A stretch of 64,000 bases of DNA from an uncultured delta proteobacterium (lineage in GTDB: Bacteria; Desulfobacterota; WTBG01). The stretch is taken from contig CAWCBP010000001.1 in NCBI GenBank assembly GCA_963793865.1, positions 640,001 through 704,000 on the forward strand, read 5' to 3'. The position numbers were made by a program. Below, piece after piece: positions 54,001 through 60,000 of the stretch. How positions within the stretch are numbered: the stretch's first letter is position 1; each line of letters begins with the position of its first letter.

Positions 54001-57000
54001 CGGCTGGGCAGACACCGGCAGGCATGACCTGGGGGAGAATCTGTGACTGAAATTCGCTGATGTGAATGTTATAAGCGGGTGTGCCTGCGGATGTTGCATC
54101 AATGACTGATATAGCGCCTGCAACCGGCAGCGGTTCGACAAACTTCGGTATTGTCGCTCCCGGCAAGCAGCAACTGCTGAGCGCCGGCAATGCCGACCAT
54201 GACAAAGATAAAGGTCAAACCCAACATTGTAAATCTAAGTCCTGTTTTCATTTCTCCTCCTTTCGTTTTCTAAAAATCACTATTCCTTTTGTGAAGCTGT
54301 TTAAGTATCTTTCGTAATCCTGTTAAAATTCTCTTACCTGCTGCAAAAACCAGAAAAATGCTTCCTTACATCTATACATTTTCTTGTCTTAGCTGACCGC
54401 TCATTTTTTCAGTTGTGCACCACCCCCCCATAGGAATTACATTAAAGTTATTTGAGACATCAAAAAATTGTTAAAATGTAAAGAAAGAGCATTTACTTTT
54501 TATTATATTGTTATTTTAAGTTATATCTTGTGTCTATGGGTAAAAAGATGTATTTTTAGCGAAAAAATAGAGTATATTTTTAGAAGGCGAACGATATCTA
54601 TTGTTTGATCATCATATTTGGTTGCTTTATATGTCTTAAATTCCAAATTGCGACATTTTCAAATTGTCATTAAAAATTGTTACTTAAACAGTAATGTATT
54701 TTTTCTATCATATGATACTAAAATTGTCAAGAATAAATAATGACAATATATTATTATAGATAAGATTTTACTATAAATTAGGCGGTTTTATCATTTGGCG
54801 AGGTATAATTATATTTGCCTTCGCTCTTTACCGCTTAACCCTTCTATGATATAAGCAAGTGCTCAGAATAGAGCTGATGTTCAGTTGGTAATATGAGTGA
54901 ATAACTACCAAGGACTTATGAGGCACGCATGGAAAAGGTAAAAAAGCTGGTGGACAGGCAGATGGATATAAAATTGAAACAGGAGATTGATACCTCTCTC
55001 AAAAGGATCAGGGCATTAGAGAATGCGCTTAAATTTCACCGGGAGAAATTGAAAGAGCTGTGTGAAGGACGGAAGGAAGAGTTGGCGGAAGAACTGGGCA
55101 TTATCAAGGGAAAGACCGGGGAGACCATTTCTGTGCTGTTCGTGCTCGAAAAAACCAACGAGCTGATAGAGGATACCATTGTTCTGTGGGGCGAGGGTGT
55201 GCGAAAAAGCTTTCTGGATTACATGGGAAAATAGAGGTTTATCAGGTGCGGAAATGAGCCTGACATCGAACGGTAAGAATAATTCGTAATATTAAGCTTG
55301 ACAAAGTTATGAGCATGATACTAGAAACAGCGATAAATAAATAGATGATAGAAGCAAATCTCCGAACCGCTTTTTCTAAAACCAAACGGTCATGAAGAGC
55401 GGTCGAAGGGTAGCATTCGAAAGAGTGTTGCCTCCCGTGCTCGGAAAGGAGATGTATGTGGAGTTTCAAAAGCCAGCATATCCCGATCCGGATGCTGGCT
55501 TTTTTTATGGCGCGCCAGATCATTCTCAATGTGCGTCAACATAAAATGCATCCGCTATAACAAGGGAGGTTGATGGTGAGTAAATCGCGAAGAGCAAAAT
55601 TTTTCATAGCAGCACTTGTTTGCACGATTCTAATCTTTACCGGCAACAGCTTTGCTGAAGAACGACTGAAGATGGCAACCACCACCAGCACTGAAAATTC
55701 CGGATTGCTTGAGATTGTTGTGCCGCCTTTTGAACAGATGTTTAACCTTAAAGTGGATATTATTGCGGTGGGAACGGGCAAGGCCATGAAACTGGGTGAG
55801 ACCGGTGATGTGGACGTGATTTTCGTTCATGATCCCGTTGATGAGGAACGTTTTATTGTTCAGGGCTATGGAGTCAACCGGCGGGCAGTTACACATAATG
55901 ATTTCGTTCTGGTTGGGCCTGCGGGTGATCCCGCGGGATGCAGGGGTATGAAGAATATTACCGAAGTATTCTCCAATATCGCGAAATCAAACGCCTTGTT
56001 TGTTTCCCGCGGGGATGACTCCGGCACGCACAGGAAGGAAAAGGAGATCTGGGCAAAGGCGGGTGTTGTGCCTCAGGGCAAGTGGTACATGGAAGCAGGG
56101 CAGGGGATGGGGGCAGTATTGCAAATGGCGCATGACAAGATGGCCTATACCTTGGCTGACAGGGGAACCTATGTCGCTTACAAACCGAAGATAGATTCAA
56201 TTATAATCTCGGAGGGAGATCCCCTGCTCTATAACCCCTATGGGGTTATTGCCGTGAATCCCGCGCGCCATCCGCAGGTGAACTATATCAAGGCAATGGC
56301 TTTTATAGGATGGCTGACTTCACCGGAGTGCCAGAAATTAATCGGCAACTTTAAAAAAGAAGGAGAAGTGCTTTTTTATCCCGATGCAATCCCGGTACAA
56401 TAAAAACAAAGTTGTTAACCGGTAGGAGCGGCTTTAAGCCGCGAATGCATCGCGCATGAATGCGTGCCTGCCGATATGTCAAACGTTTTTAGCCGGGTTT
56501 TATTAAGACAAGTAAATATATCATCTGCAAGTTACCACTCCTAAAGATCATAATCCATGGAGGGTAACCGACAGGGTAGACCCCGAAAGGGTTCTATCTC
56601 CCGTGTTTGGAAAGATGAGCTGCCATAGGGCCAGTTCCATGTCAACACGGGACTGGCCTTTTTGCTGATCAGGAAGGCAATTCTGTTCAAGAGTGAGATT
56701 GGCGCGCCATGCTCGCAATGGCAATATTGAGCGAGTCTATAACTAGACACGTCGTTGCGAGGAGCGTAAGCGACAAAGCAATCTCATGCTTCAAAAATAA
56801 TTAATTCAAAAAGCTTTCCTCCTTGGTTGCACCGTCATAGGCAGGACTATTATGATAAGAACAGCAATTGGTTATTTGTATCTTGATTTCAATACTCTTC
56901 TTATCAATGGCAATGCTGACGCTGAAAACCTTGCCAATGATAAATTATTGGAAATACTAGAGCAGAAGGGTTTCTTAACGGAAGAAGAGGTAAAAGAAGT

Positions 57001-60000
57001 CAAGGGAATACTTACCAAGGAAGAGGAAAAGGAAGTTAAAGTTGTCTATGAGGAAGGGGTTCATATCAGAACCAACGACAAAAGTTTTGATACCAGGATC
57101 GGGGGAGTTATTCAAACTGATCTGATCGCATTCAGCTCACATTATCCCGAGGACAACGATTTTGATATCAGAAGGGCGCGCCTGTTTATAGAAGGAAGGA
57201 TGTTCGACTATTTCGGTTATAAATTTGAAGGGGAATTTGAAGGTGCAAGCAATGACCGGCTGGTGGATGCCCTGATAAATTTCGATTACTTTCCTTACCT
57301 GCAGCTCCAGGTGGGTCAGTTTAAAGAACCGTTCAGTCTTGAGAACCTCATTTCAGACAAATATCTTCCCTTCAATGAGCGGTCAATGGCCTATTATCTA
57401 ACACCCGCGCGGGATGTGGGTATTATGATACACGGGAATTTATTCGGTGACATGATCAACTACGGGGTAGGTGTATTTAACGGTGACGGCCGTGATGCCA
57501 CCAGAAGGAGCCAGAAGGATGATAAAGAGTATGCCGGACGCTTCGTACTGAAGCCATTTCATAAACTGGACATTCCGTTGATAAGCAACCTCCAGATCGG
57601 GGGATCCTTTGCTTATGCGAGGCTGGACACATCGGACCTGAATGTGGACATTGATACGCCGGGCCGAACAACTTTTTTTGAGGTGAATTCGCGGGCCAAG
57701 TTTCGTGTTATTCAGGATGTTGACGACAGGAGGCGGTTTGGATTTGAAATGGCTTACACCTGCGGTCCGCTTGCTCTTATGGGGGAGTATATCAGAAACG
57801 ATTACCATGGAGTGCTGCCTACCGATGAGGATGCGTTTGATTTCAGCATGAAGGGATGGTACGCGGGCATGCTGTTGATGCTCACCGGAGAAAGGCCGGT
57901 GATCTCAAAAGGGGTGCTGGAGAAAATCAGGCCCAGGAACAACTTTGATATTAAGGGCCGGAAATGGGGCGCCTGGGGAATAGGCTTCCGCTATGAACAG
58001 TTCGAAGCGGACCAGGTGGTCTATGATGAGCTTGTTTTCGAAGGGCAAAGCGTAAGACGTGCAAATTCATTTACGGCGGCTTTGAACTGGTATCTCAACA
58101 GCATGGTACGGTTTTCTCTCAACTACAGCCGCACCACGTTCGCGCAGCCCCTCTTTCTGGGAACCAGCCCCGAGGGGTACTCGTACTACCGTGACACGGA
58201 GAATGTCTGGGTCACCAGGTTTCAACTGGAGTTCTAGCAGGCTGGTGAAAAACAACCATCTGCTGCGTTACGCTCATCCTTCGTCATTGCAGCGTACAGG
58301 AAAGTACGCCTCATTCCTCAGGATTTTGCGTGCCTTGCATCTGGCTGTTTTTGACCAGCCTGGGGAAAATACTTTTTCAACAACTTTTTATAGTAACCCA
58401 CGAGGATACTTATGAAAAAGAAGATGCTGGTTGTTGCTCTTGTGATGCTGACAGGTATGGTGAGCCTCGTTCAGGCTGCCTATCACCATGAAGGGGAAGC
58501 GGACTCGCCGAAATTTGTTTCTGTTTATCCGGCTGCAGAAGGAACCAAGCTGGACAGTTGCGCCCTTTGCCATACCGGAGGCGAGTATGAGAAAAGTCCC
58601 GGCCAGTGGGTTGAGGTGGGAAGCTGCCAGTGGTGTCATCTGACCTATGGATATGACGGCAGCGGCGACATTAAGGAAACCATGAACCCGTATGGTGCTG
58701 ATTACAATTCCGCTGGAAGAAGTTCGGGAGCATTTGCTTCCATAGACGGAAGAGATTCTGATGGGGATGGCTATAGCAACAGGCAGGAGATAAATGCTTT
58801 GAGCTACCCGGGGGATGCCACAGATGATCCCACTAAAATTCCCGCCCCGTCAGTGACCTATACCCTGAGTGAACTGGAAGCATTGCGGAACCACAGTCAG
58901 TTTTTACTCATGAACACAAGCCGCTCTGGGGACTGGTATGGTGAGTATGAGGGGGTACCCATGCTTGATTTGCTGCGGGATGCGGGAATGGTTGAAGAAA
59001 CAACAAGTGCAATAACTGTTTTTGCCCCCGATGGATACTCCTACACCTACGTACTGAAGCCGGGGGGTGAGTACTATTATATAGATGGCACCTATCCCCA
59101 GGCTCAGTATTACTATGATGTCCAGGCAGATAAAGCAAACGGGGGGTGGTGTGATTATTCTGCACCGTCCACTACGGGGCGTAACAATGGTGACCCCGTA
59201 ACGGTTGAAGGCGGTTTGAAATTTATACTAGCCTACAAGAGAGATGGGGCATATCTGGAGCCGGGCTATCTTGATGAAGAAAATAGAATCCCGCTTGACC
59301 GGGAAGGCCCTTTCAGGTCAGTGCCGCCGCAAATGGTTCCCTGTCCGCCTGATCAGTCGTCAACAGCTGAAAACCAGGATGTTGTCTGGCCTTTTGACGA
59401 AAGCCTCGATCACAATGCAGGCTTCTCGGCACGCACTGCAGTCGCCATCAGGATAGAGCCTCTGCCCGAGGGCACCTCGGACTTTAACTGGTACGAAGGG
59501 GGATGGGACTATGTTGATGACAAGTCCATCATTATCTATGGCAACCTTGCCAGCGGCGGAATCCAAGGGGAAGTGATAGATCAGGATACAAGCCCTGCCG
59601 ATAGAAAACGCGTCTATCTCGACCATAAAGGAGGATATTCTGCTACAACCGACAGCGCGGGAAGCTTTGCCATCAATGGGATGAAAGTAGGCACCTACAC
59701 GTCAGGGCGTCTGCTGCCGGTTACCAATCGCAAAGCCAATCTGTAACCGTTGCCAAGGATGCTGAGCAAACGGTCAACTTCAGTCTGCCCCAGGCTGAAG
59801 ACACCTGTCCGATCGAAATGATGCTCCCGGCCGATCTCCAGAAGCTTTCCCTGTTAAGGAATTACCGGGACAAGGTTCTCATGAGAAGCGCTGAGGGAAG
59901 AGCTTATGTCAAAAGGTATTATGAGCATGCCTCAGAGATAGTCACGATGCTTCTGTTGAATCGGGATATAAGAAGCATGGCATTTAAGGCAGTGAATGCT

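Follow-up and report, generated by a model that had tools for sequence, protein, structure and literature searches.

Why does a gene for an outer-membrane porin of the OprO/OprP family lie behind a Moco/Tuco riboswitch (RF01055), and which anion would such a porin admit? The locus is part of a window of 64,000 nt (C1:640001–704000 of the contig, hence an offset of 640000; Table 1), for which the genome-wide survey's note had given correct start and end positions but an offset of 672000. With 29 AFOR_N matches (two of them halves of one gene), in agreement with the 29 AFOR genes counted in that note, the genome is tungsten-heavy, and its modABC genes stand at a separate place without a riboswitch. 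The explanation that we consider probable is a regulon for tungsten acquisition, controlled by two OFF riboswitches of the P3-less Moco class that act through transcription termination, with the porin as a tungstate channel and the GEGP-motif dihaem protein encoded beside it (GEGP) as its partner.

Table 1. Features of the locus, in window positions.
Feature	Position	Strand	Details
Riboswitch 1 aptamer (RF01055, P3-less), upstream of tupA	55348..55467	+	76.5 bits, E 9.7e-17, model 1-135, positions 60-74 deleted
Intrinsic terminator of riboswitch 1	55472..55507	+	28-nt hairpin + 7 T; dG -14.1 kcal/mol; 4 nt past aptamer
tupA, periplasmic tungstate-binding protein of TupABC transporter, 277 aa, signal peptide	55570..56403	+	PBP_like_2 146 bits
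Spacer with short dispersed repeat	56404..56512	.	99 further 42-73-nt matches in genome
Riboswitch 2 aptamer (RF01055, P3-less), upstream of porin	56513..56633	+	60.9 bits, E 3.6e-12, P3 positions deleted
Intrinsic terminator of riboswitch 2	56629..56663	+	30-nt hairpin + 5 T; dG -18.9 kcal/mol; shares last 5 nt of aptamer match
38-nt dispersed repeat, porin leader	56751..56788	.	18 further genome copies
OprO/OprP-family outer-membrane porin, 461 aa, candidate tungstate/molybdate channel	56852..58237	+	Porin_O_P 123.4 bits
Dispersed repeat of ~148 nt between porin and GEGP genes	58238..58385	.	55 further copies, 91-97% identity
GEGP-motif dihaem gene	58412..60200	+	NF041762 454.7 bits, cut-off 300; three frames in this assembly
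Conserved 128-aa exported protein of cassette	60227..60613	+	matches no known family

Two P3-less riboswitches with terminators

Both aptamers score above the RF01055 gathering score of 36, and a chance match is unlikely given their E-values (1e-16 and 4e-12) together with compensatory changes at 21 of 30 consensus pairs across 16 aptamers compared, a covarying structure that riboswitch 1 fits as well. Covariance-model alignments delete P3 (model positions 60–74) in each, as the earlier note had described, and P3 occurs in none of the 16 aptamers. These RNAs share P1, P2, P4 and P5 with the Moco/Tuco riboswitch of Regulski et al. 2008 (PMC2408646), in which a P3-less class was tied to tungsten-cofactor genes by correlation; deletion of P3 from the E. 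coli RNA merely abolished regulation. We infer that the ligand is Tuco or Moco. Among the other RF01055 aptamers of the order, five precede moaA, two precede AOR genes (one of these two is this genome's third aptamer) and one precedes a Molybdop_Fe4S4 protein gene.

An intrinsic terminator stands behind each of the 15 aptamers located before tupA or the porin gene; terminator platforms and tandem or triple aptamers are known from Regulski et al. 2008 (PMC2408646). The 3' segment of the riboswitch 2 aptamer can pair alternatively with its terminator (dG -19.3; matched by 3 of 300 shuffles), and aptamer–terminator complementarity is such that at most 6 of 300 shuffles are as good in 9/15 cases, riboswitch 2 among them. 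For riboswitch 1, no significant antiterminator pairing with the tested aptamer segment was detected (equalled by 134 of 300 shuffles).

At low levels of the pterin cofactor the aptamer would stay empty, its conserved 3' segment would pair with the terminator and RNA polymerase would continue, so that read-through would yield TupA at riboswitch 1 and the porin, GEGP and the 128-aa protein at riboswitch 2. The OprP-like porin would pass tungstate, and probably molybdate, through the outer membrane, and TupA would deliver the anion to TupB/TupC. With plentiful cofactor, liganded aptamers would permit the terminators and the genes would be off.

TupA and the transporter genes

The single-copy tupA encodes a protein that matches 3LR1, deposited as a tungstate-binding protein (289 bits), and 5MY5, deposited as an ABC transporter periplasmic substrate-binding protein (232 bits). 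The genes for TupB and TupC, the latter with a TOBE domain, are also present on the same strand (C1:713883–716601). In contrast to the known TupABC transporter, tupA here has its own riboswitch, genes for envelope proteins fill the 17 kb between it and tupBC, and its NCBIfam score stays under the equivalog cut-off (NF041772; 247 vs 400 bits).

Among the observations that sit awkwardly with a tungsten-acquisition regulon are the 17-kb distance of tupB/tupC, the lack of a detected antiterminator at riboswitch 1, and the 9 of 26 GEGP loci at which no W/Mo gene is found nearby.

The porin and its paralogues

The porin matches OprO (4rjw) with 80 bits, and its AF2 model (pLDDT 83.5) has OprP (2o4v, E 5e-25) and OprO as closest folds. 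Like these Pseudomonas aeruginosa channels it retains an Arg-Arg motif, R107/R108, which aligns with OprO residues 59–60, and the two positions at which 4rjw differs from the F62Y/D114Y mutant 4rjx align with its invariant Arg110 and Lys158. Besides these two residues, an extension of some 35 residues that forms a helix at the N-terminus and the GEGP gene that follows set it apart from OprP and OprO. OprP pairs with PstS and the porin here likewise with a high-affinity oxyanion ABC importer, yet TupA or WtpA takes the place of PstS and a cofactor riboswitch that of the Pho regulon. Its signal peptide is odd in this genome but canonical in relatives.

All three Porin_O_P porins of the genome are paired each with one anion ABC importer; the other two lie, as previously noted, in a PhoB/R–porin–PstSCA–PhoU cluster and in an NMT1-ABC cluster. 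The conserved pore residues that we examined, among them basic ones at positions aligned with the specificity residues of OprO/OprP, are identical in these paralogues except for Ser instead of Arg at position 107, so no sequence feature reads as tungstate-specific, and it is genomic context that points to tungstate as the substrate. Of the proposed cofactor-repressed, tungstate-specific porin, the cofactor repression is supported by P3-less aptamers, terminators and conserved gene order, while selectivity finds no backing in the pore residues examined.

These shared residues, the OprP/OprO fold and family, and a porin tree in which the partner transporter switches freely within a single porin clade would also fit an ordinary phosphate or general anion porin in a tungsten-regulated operon, with tungstate crossing it or other porins non-specifically. 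We consider this quite unlikely, as the genome already owns a Pho-type porin beside PstSCA–PhoU, the GEGP-linked porins form a subfamily separate from the clade of that porin, a clade with support 99/97, and the gene order is conserved across classes under two differing control types.

Conservation of the cassette

Thirteen of 14 genomes, drawn from three families of a single class, carry a riboswitch ahead of their porin orthologue; as the riboswitch-bearing genomes are kin, these 13 cases are not independent. In a sample of the phylum, RF01055 precedes the porin orthologue at 9 of 10 loci with at least 57% identity, and the same holds for G005, G004 and G002 of the same family. Within the order, RF01055 is found in 9 of 11 genomes; G005, G004 and G003 show the order riboswitch–tupA–riboswitch–porin, and G002 has three tandem aptamers immediately before the porin, in accordance with the pairs and the tandem triple reported before. 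Where the survey's note had counted five genera, all of one family, we find an aptamer immediately before the porin in four genera of that family and in six further genera, which belong to two more families of the same class. A single riboswitch leads porin–GEGP–p134–tupA–tupB–tupC in G299, and G242 has the cassette but lacks the riboswitch.

Outside the riboswitch clade, the porin–GEGP pair is kept beside genes for TupA, WtpABC, ModA or HTH+PBP_like regulators. Links to W/Mo genes at riboswitch-free loci comprise porin–GEGP–WtpA (463.6 bits, cut-off 355) with permease and ATPase (G150), porin–GEGP–TupA with an HTH_17+PBP_like regulator (G298), GEGP–porin–TupA (G103, G024), GEGP directly followed by tupABC on the same strand (G400), GEGP near ModA (220.6 bits; G134) and porin–TupA–TupB (G016, G036). 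The link to tungstate is therefore firmer than first claimed, with relatives of the porin in other classes adjoining TupA/TupB, a WtpA equivalog or HTH_17+PBP_like regulators. A GEGP locus was counted as W/Mo-linked if RF01055, a W/Mo binding protein or a W/Mo regulator occurs within ~6 kb of it. By this count 17 of 26 GEGP loci qualify, with G300 left out, where the copy is degraded and stands next to a distant TupA-like gene. Together with the riboswitch upstream of the porin in 13 of the 14 genomes, this makes a cofactor-repressed tungsten-acquisition cassette well supported, and it suggests that tungsten uptake in anaerobic bacteria includes a step at the outer membrane that is still undescribed.

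The described Moco/Tuco regulon covers transport, MPT synthesis and cofactor-using enzymes, as does the regulon here, which in addition controls a porin of the outer membrane and a dihaem protein with a SUOX fold; the words "porin" and "outer membrane" are absent from the main text of that description (PMC2408646).

A precedent for shutting off outer-membrane uptake in this way comes from another cofactor. The cobalamin riboswitch before btuB senses a cofactor and turns off the outer-membrane uptake protein for it. BtuB is a TonB-dependent receptor that takes the finished cofactor, whereas the porin of this locus, an anion channel of the diffusion type, would provide the metal precursor.

GEGP as partner of the porin

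Porin and GEGP form a conserved pair (together at 19 of 26 GEGP loci). GEGP comprises a signal peptide, two CXXCH motifs, an Asp-rich DSDGD-type stretch, a SUOX/PruR-fold domain, CarboxypepD_reg and a C-terminal tail. The three gene identities proposed earlier—TupA-like, porin and GEGP—hold with the scores in Table 1, except that the dihaem gene extends beyond 59746, in two other frames, as far as 60200. A tblastn search with the 594-aa G006 orthologue recovers residues 1–430, 431–533 and 544–591 in three frames, broken near 59701 and between 60009 and 60042, and contigs of related strains differ in length by 1 nt at 60009 and 60039/60040 inside the gene. These breaks and the odd porin signal peptide may be assembly errors or real decay.

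The best structural matches of the GEGP model (pLDDT 89.9) are PruR structures (7kp2, 7rkb), with Z 11.7 and 11.5 for residues 144–351, and SorA follows with Z 11.3. In GEGP as in PruR, the SUOX-fold domain is exported by the Sec route and lacks the cysteine that serves as Mo ligand. PruR consists of one small domain and works as a sensor coupled to a c-di-GMP enzyme (PMC11194511), unlike GEGP with its two c-type haems, Asp-rich stretch, Ig-like and sorting domains and its association with the porin and W/Mo importers. With such a fold in the porin's partner, a simple cofactor-repressed channel would be an incomplete picture. In the tungsten-acquisition regulon, GEGP would be a fixed partner of the porin, in the envelope or at the cell surface, that captures or chemically prepares the metal species.

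The PruR-like fold and control by a riboswitch sensing a pterin cofactor also suit a cassette that salvages external pterin or finished cofactor, with pterin or molybdopterin entering through the porin and binding in a PruR-like pocket of GEGP, as PruR proteins bind pterin (PMC11194511). This is very improbable, given that the neighbouring genes encode oxyanion binding proteins and none encodes a pterin transporter. OprP-type channels, moreover, are narrow pores of phosphate size.

Less remote, though still unlikely, is that porin and GEGP form a small redox module in which GEGP, as a haem and SUOX-fold enzyme, acts on an oxyanion (of sulfur, selenium or another element) or a pterin supplied by the porin, and in which the riboswitch reflects the need of the enzyme or pathway for pterin cofactor, as at riboswitch-controlled AOR or Moco enzymes. 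The two c-type haems and the SUOX-fold domain (Z 10–11.7 vs sulfite dehydrogenases, SoxC and PruR) are consistent with it, as are the P3-less aptamers that Regulski 2008 (PMC2408646) lists for S. wolfei ahead of putative sulfite oxidase genes, and the GEGP loci without W/Mo genes nearby, among them one with an Oxidored_molyb gene and another with a multihaem cytochrome. Another pointer is the only NCBIfam match of the porin, ExtI (NF040900), the porin of a selenite/tellurite reduction operon, although this match is weak (41.9 bits, cut-off 150). However, GEGP has no conserved cysteines besides those of the two CXXCH motifs and hence no evident Mo ligand, and its leader is of the Sec type. Attachment of c-type haem is not compatible with cytoplasmic Moco insertion. 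The genes that recur nearby encode W/Mo binding proteins of three kinds and a regulator of the W/Mo type, with no sulfur or selenium genes among them, and tupABC lies directly downstream on the same strand in G299 and G400. The adjacency of an outer-membrane barrel gene and a c-type cytochrome gene recalls porin–cytochrome conduits and ExtI, but with only two haems in GEGP, an OprP-like barrel and the low ExtI score, the pair does not look like an electron conduit.

Downstream of GEGP, a gene for a protein of 128–135 aa without a family recurs in G006, G242, G212, G151, G084 and G299; family searches with the 128-aa protein gave no match and no further lead. Contig depth is very high at 56400–56530, around the repeat-bearing spacer, and reaches 690–2050 at 58234–58364, at the repeat between the porin and GEGP genes.

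Two P3-less riboswitches precede tupA and the porin gene

A cmscan of the whole window gives exactly two Rfam matches above threshold, both to RF01055, of which riboswitch 1 lies before tupA and riboswitch 2 before the gene of a 461-aa porin of the OprO/OprP family (see table). The genome-wide survey's note had described both as aptamers lacking the P3 stem, and the cmscan alignments bear this out since the P3 hairpin (model positions 60-74) is deleted in each of them. The note's start and end fields are right as well, while its offset of 672000 is wrong, the window being C1:640001-704000. 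A third P3-less aptamer elsewhere in the 3.85 Mb assembly (14 contigs) directly precedes a gene for an aldehyde:ferredoxin oxidoreductase (AOR) and has no terminator. Alignment of these three aptamers with 13 others from relatives, which are uncultured Thermodesulfobacteriota MAGs, yields a consensus of P1, P2, P4, and P5 with P3 in none of the 16 sequences and compensatory changes at 21 of 30 consensus pairs, a count that is inflated because the sequences are kin.

Features of the cassette, its surroundings, and the third aptamer (window positions unless a contig is named)
Feature	Position	Strand	Remarks
Copper-handling cluster	47690-54205	-	
Multicopper oxidase gene	52215-54205	-	split
Riboswitch 1 aptamer	55348-55467	+	RF01055, 76.5 bits (gathering score 36)
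Terminator of riboswitch 1	starts 4 nt past aptamer 1		hairpin dG -14.1, T run
Dispersed repeat	56404-56512		99 further matches in genome
Riboswitch 2 aptamer	56513-56633	+	RF01055, 60.9 bits (gathering score 36)
Terminator of riboswitch 2	overlaps last 5 nt of aptamer 2		hairpin dG -18.9, T run
Dispersed repeat	56751-56788		18 further matches in genome
Porin gene	56852-58237		
Dispersed repeat, ~148 nt	58238-58385		55 further matches; palindromic by eye
GEGP gene	58412-60200		read in three frames
CBM96/DNRLRE and thrombospondin-type-3 repeat genes	60893-64000, through C1:709300		
AA_kinase gene	C1:712837-713679		UMP-kinase-like
tupB and tupC	C1:713883-716601		same strand as cassette
Third aptamer	C2:156169-156291		P3-less
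AOR gene behind third aptamer	C2:156314-158042		split

Strong hairpins with a T run directly follow both aptamers of the window, and such a terminator is present behind all 15 examined aptamers that precede tupA or the porin gene in this genome and its relatives. Both terminators in the window were missed by a simple promoter/terminator scan because their loops exceed its limit, and the promoter scan found nothing above chance (6 found, 7.3 expected). For 9 of these 15 aptamers, the conserved 3' segment is complementary to the terminator beyond what is seen with shuffled sequences (at most 6 of 300 shuffles as good), and for riboswitch 2 this complementarity is matched by 3 of 300 shuffles; for riboswitch 1, no antiterminator was found with the 3' segment tested (134 of 300 shuffles as good). 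Judged from their sequences, both platforms are built like a transcriptional OFF switch, in which an empty aptamer would release a strand that blocks terminator formation and the predicted cofactor-sensing riboswitch would shut off the cassette. Other genes preceded by aptamers in the order are moaA (5), AOR genes (2), and the gene of a Molybdop_Fe4S4 protein (1), and these targets are a classic cofactor-homeostasis regulon. Moco or Tuco, the ligand of this riboswitch class, is unstable. The predicted repression by cofactor that the survey's note proposed appears sound.

A predicted tungstate-binding protein and its transporter

The gene behind riboswitch 1 encodes a 277-aa exported binding protein (PBP_like_2, 146 bits) that scores 247.4 bits with the NCBIfam TupA equivalog NF041772, under the cut-off of 400. 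All nine other TupA-like neighbours that reach at least 200 bits with this model score 209-255, and the lineage as a whole therefore lies under its cut-off. The protein matches PDB entry 3LR1, deposited as a tungstate-binding protein, with 289 bits and 5MY5 with 232 bits, while tupB (permease) and tupC (ATPase with TOBE domain) are located farther along the contig behind a stretch filled with CBM96/DNRLRE/TSP3 surface-protein genes. Its nearness to a solved tungstate-binding protein and the presence of TupB and TupC partners identify it, at the level of predicted function, as TupA. The genome additionally encodes one modABC set on contig C14 that has no riboswitch, and it contains 29 AFOR_N and 10 Molybdopterin-family matches.

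The exported CBM96/DNRLRE and thrombospondin-type-3 repeat proteins form a run that begins in the window, and CBM96 genes are also found at the equivalent place in the related genome G006. Directly before tupB/tupC we find a UMP-kinase-like AA_kinase gene that also occurs at L057:3291-4139 and L061:8040-8867, i.e., beside tupBC or a riboswitch in three genomes. The Mo/W storage protein MoSto belongs to this UMP-kinase-like fold, and by analogy the AA_kinase may be a metal store.

The riboswitch-porin link is conserved while gene order varies

A related-locus search with a single protein gave only three close relatives. Within the same family, the order riboswitch-tupA-riboswitch-porin is found in three genomes (G005, G004, and G003), three tandem aptamers directly precede the porin gene in G002, and G006 has the order riboswitch-tupA-porin. 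A protein search of a 401-genome sample of the phylum added two more families of this class, with porin orthologues at 57-66% identity. Among these 401 genomes, RF01055 lies upstream of 9 of the 10 porin loci at 57% identity or more (the exception being G242) and of none of the 19 loci at 46% identity or less. The position of tupA differs between lineages: It comes before the porin gene in the family of the genome under study and after porin, GEGP, and the small gene p130 in G212, G151, G084, and G299, the last of which has a single riboswitch heading porin, GEGP, p134, tupA, tupB, and tupC. This variation in gene order speaks for selection, rather than plain inheritance, as the reason for the link.

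In one family, f3, the cassette also regularly includes a protein with PKD and Lcl_C domains (loci L058-L061 and L064 of G242, G212, G151, G084, and G118). In G044, a fluoride riboswitch (L054:3222-3286) was considered as a porin control and rejected, as it lies on the opposite strand; the Porin_O_P gene beside it is distant (28% identical).

An OprP-like porin whose residues do not reveal its substrate

The porin matches Porin_O_P with 123.4 bits (Pfam gathering threshold 20.9), and its AlphaFold model (pLDDT 83.5) has OprP as the best fold (2o4v, E 5.4e-25, TM 0.64/0.71). OprO (4rjw/4rjx) is also among the top folds and the next ones reach only E 1e-12, so that the predicted fold is much closer to OprP/OprO than to any other porin. 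In the sequence alignments, R107/R108 align with the Arg-Arg motif of OprO, and all 56 porin sequences share R110, K158, R187, R230, and R456. Of these, R110 and K158 align with the two positions that distinguish 4rjw from the F62Y/D114Y mutant 4rjx. These two positions of OprO are its phosphate/diphosphate discriminators.

We considered these putative pore residues as a read-out of the substrate and rejected this, since the checked positions except 107 are the same in the two other porins of the genome: R108, R110, and K158 are identical in both, which have Ser for Arg at 107. One of these paralogues belongs to a PhoB/R-porin-PstSCA-PhoU cluster, the other to an NMT1-ABC cluster. No phosphate-specific (Pho/PstS) context is found at the porin of the cassette, whose context is riboswitch and tupA, and the Pho-type porin is a separate gene on C14. 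In a maximum-likelihood tree, the porins without GEGP partner, including both paralogues, form one clade (99/97) in which the partner varies among PstS, NMT1, and TupA, and the GEGP-linked porins lie outside of this clade. Shared residues, tree, and gene clusters therefore suggest that the scaffold is an anion-selective channel with one porin per importer, and the substrate of this predicted channel cannot be read from its residues. The survey's view of a cofactor-repressed, oxyanion (tungstate/molybdate)-specific porin is upheld in its aptamers and its predicted regulation, while the tungstate-selective channel is a well-motivated prediction for which the putative pore residues are non-diagnostic.

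The porin partner GEGP is a dihaem protein with a predicted sulfite-oxidase fold

The gene following the porin encodes a dihaem protein of the GEGP family (NF041762, 454.7 bits; cut-off 300). It is composed of a Sec-type leader, two CXXCH motifs with invariant haem residues (C50, C53, H54, C72, C75, and H76), an Asp-rich stretch of the DSDGD type that weakly matches TSP3_bac, and a well-conserved domain of 200 residues, while the tails differ among homologues (CarboxypepD_reg, choice-of-anchor U, or CFI-box-CTERM). A porin-cytochrome electron conduit as explanation for the pair was rejected: Such conduits pair a large barrel with multihaem cytochromes in the periplasm and on the outer surface, but GEGP has only two haem motifs and the barrel of the cassette is OprP-like.

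In the predicted structure (pLDDT 89.9), residues 144-351 adopt the Moco-binding fold of sulfite oxidase (SUOX). VIA-align matches this model to ten SUOX-fold chains (Z 8.5-11.7, rmsd 2.1-2.5 over 119-125 residues) with PruR at the top (7kp2: Z 11.7, rmsd 2.4, 123 residues; 7rkb: Z 11.5), SorA at 11.3, SoxC at 11.0, sulfite oxidase at 10.0, and YedY at 8.6, compared to Z 5.6 for the nearest unrelated chain; Foldseek finds the same families with weak E-values of 1.6e-3 and worse. At the sequence level, a search against the PDB matches the CarboxypepD_reg part only, the Pfam family Oxidored_molyb gives no match at E 0.01, and hhalign against an Oxidored_molyb protein is not significant (probability 4%). 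The GEGP alignments contain no invariant or nearly invariant Cys beyond the haem motifs that could be the Mo ligand, and the position of this ligand appears by eye to fall on the nearly invariant Asn168. As is established for the Sec and Tat routes, a need for haem attachment in the periplasm rules out the insertion of Moco in the cytoplasm, and GEGP is therefore not a classical molybdoenzyme. It resembles the PruR proteins, which are likewise exported and have a SUOX fold without the Mo-ligand cysteine and, as stated in PMC11194511, bind small pterins. Candidate ligands of GEGP are the oxyanion, a thio-metalate, or a pterin.

The GEGP family comprises 663 clusters at 90% identity that are named only "hypothetical" or by motif, and a search of the open-access literature for GEGP diheme proteins gave nothing relevant. 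The 128-aa exported protein encoded after GEGP matches no Pfam or NCBIfam family and has Atlas scores of at most 0.79.

Tungsten links of the porin-GEGP pair beyond the riboswitch

NF041762 is found in 27 of 401 sampled genomes as a single copy each, and we examined 26 of these loci, excluding G300 with a degraded copy and a distant TupA-like gene alongside. A Porin_O_P gene adjoins GEGP in 19 of the 26 loci (G252 has a porin remnant), and GEGP follows the porin in all distant loci inspected that have the pair (G150, G060, G298, G375, G050, and G216). The simple porin picture of the survey's note must also take in a dihaem/SUOX-fold protein that forms a pair with the porin.

Within ~6 kb of GEGP, 17 of the 26 loci contain RF01055 or a W/Mo gene, and the other 9 contain neither. 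TupA-like genes are neighbours within the class as well as in G103, G024, G298, and G400, while G150 has a WtpA equivalog (463.6 bits; cut-off 355) along with permease and ATPase, and G134 has a ModA equivalog. In G349, G298, and G252, the neighbours include regulators with HTH_17+PBP_like, the domain pair of the tungstate-responsive TunR type. These three unrelated kinds of W/Mo-binding proteins and two kinds of control on the same pair are the strongest argument for its function. Two porins without GEGP are located before tupA-tupB, in G016 and G036. In G223, a small Oxidored_molyb (YedY-like) gene (L081:4414-5100) lies ~600 nt from GEGP on the opposite strand.

Based on genomic context, the best interpretation of the cassette is that it serves the acquisition of tungsten, and perhaps of molybdenum, at the cell envelope. 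As a tentative and rather unlikely extension, porin and GEGP might together be an outer-membrane entry system dedicated to tungsten (and molybdenum): GEGP, located on the cell surface or beneath the pore, would bind the W/Mo forms prevalent in sulfidic sediments, such as thio-metalates or mineral-bound metal, or redox-convert them to the oxyanion, and the porin would pass the oxyanion on to TupA/WtpA. If true, the pair would be the first outer-membrane system specific to these metals, and the sulfite-oxidase fold would have gained a new, cofactor-free function.

We know of no description of how tungstate or molybdate passes the outer membrane. A search of the open-access literature (with subscription journals outside its scope) for Moco riboswitch together with porin retrieved no paper. 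The matches for tungstate with porin in PMC2996986, PMC5826389, and PMC2700814 concern other subjects in the passages retrieved, and those of the other open-access matches are likewise not about such a channel. The cassette offers a concrete, testable candidate for a W/Mo channel and the first functional lead for the GEGP family, and it extends the known regulon of P3-less riboswitches to the cell envelope. It occurs in uncultured anaerobes that have dozens of tungsten enzymes, and their carbon turnover in sediments is therefore probably limited by the supply of trace metals.

Frame breaks, repeats, and neighbouring genes

Three reading frames make up the GEGP gene: The 594-aa orthologue from G006 covers them with its residues 1-430, 431-533, and 544-591, and the frame changes lie near 59701 and between 60009 and 60042. 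Public metagenome contigs of related strains lack one base each at 60009 and at 60039/60040. The first ~20 residues of the porin form only a poor signal peptide, in contrast to the canonical ones of all relatives; an alternative frame at its start reads a hydrophobic stretch, and differences of +1, +1, and -2 bases are seen in one related contig between positions 56861 and 56902. Splits into overlapping or adjacent frames also affect the multicopper oxidase gene and the AOR gene downstream of the third aptamer. The assembly seems prone to single-base indels, and the frame breaks are probably such errors, with real decay as the alternative. Three dispersed repeat families in the spacers explain why the gaps of the cassette are longer than in relatives, and these repeat stretches reach depths of hundreds to thousands in public metagenome contigs.

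The copper-handling cluster in the window comprises an RND pump that is CusA-like by eye, a CusB-like fusion protein with YHS and HMBD domains, and the multicopper oxidase.
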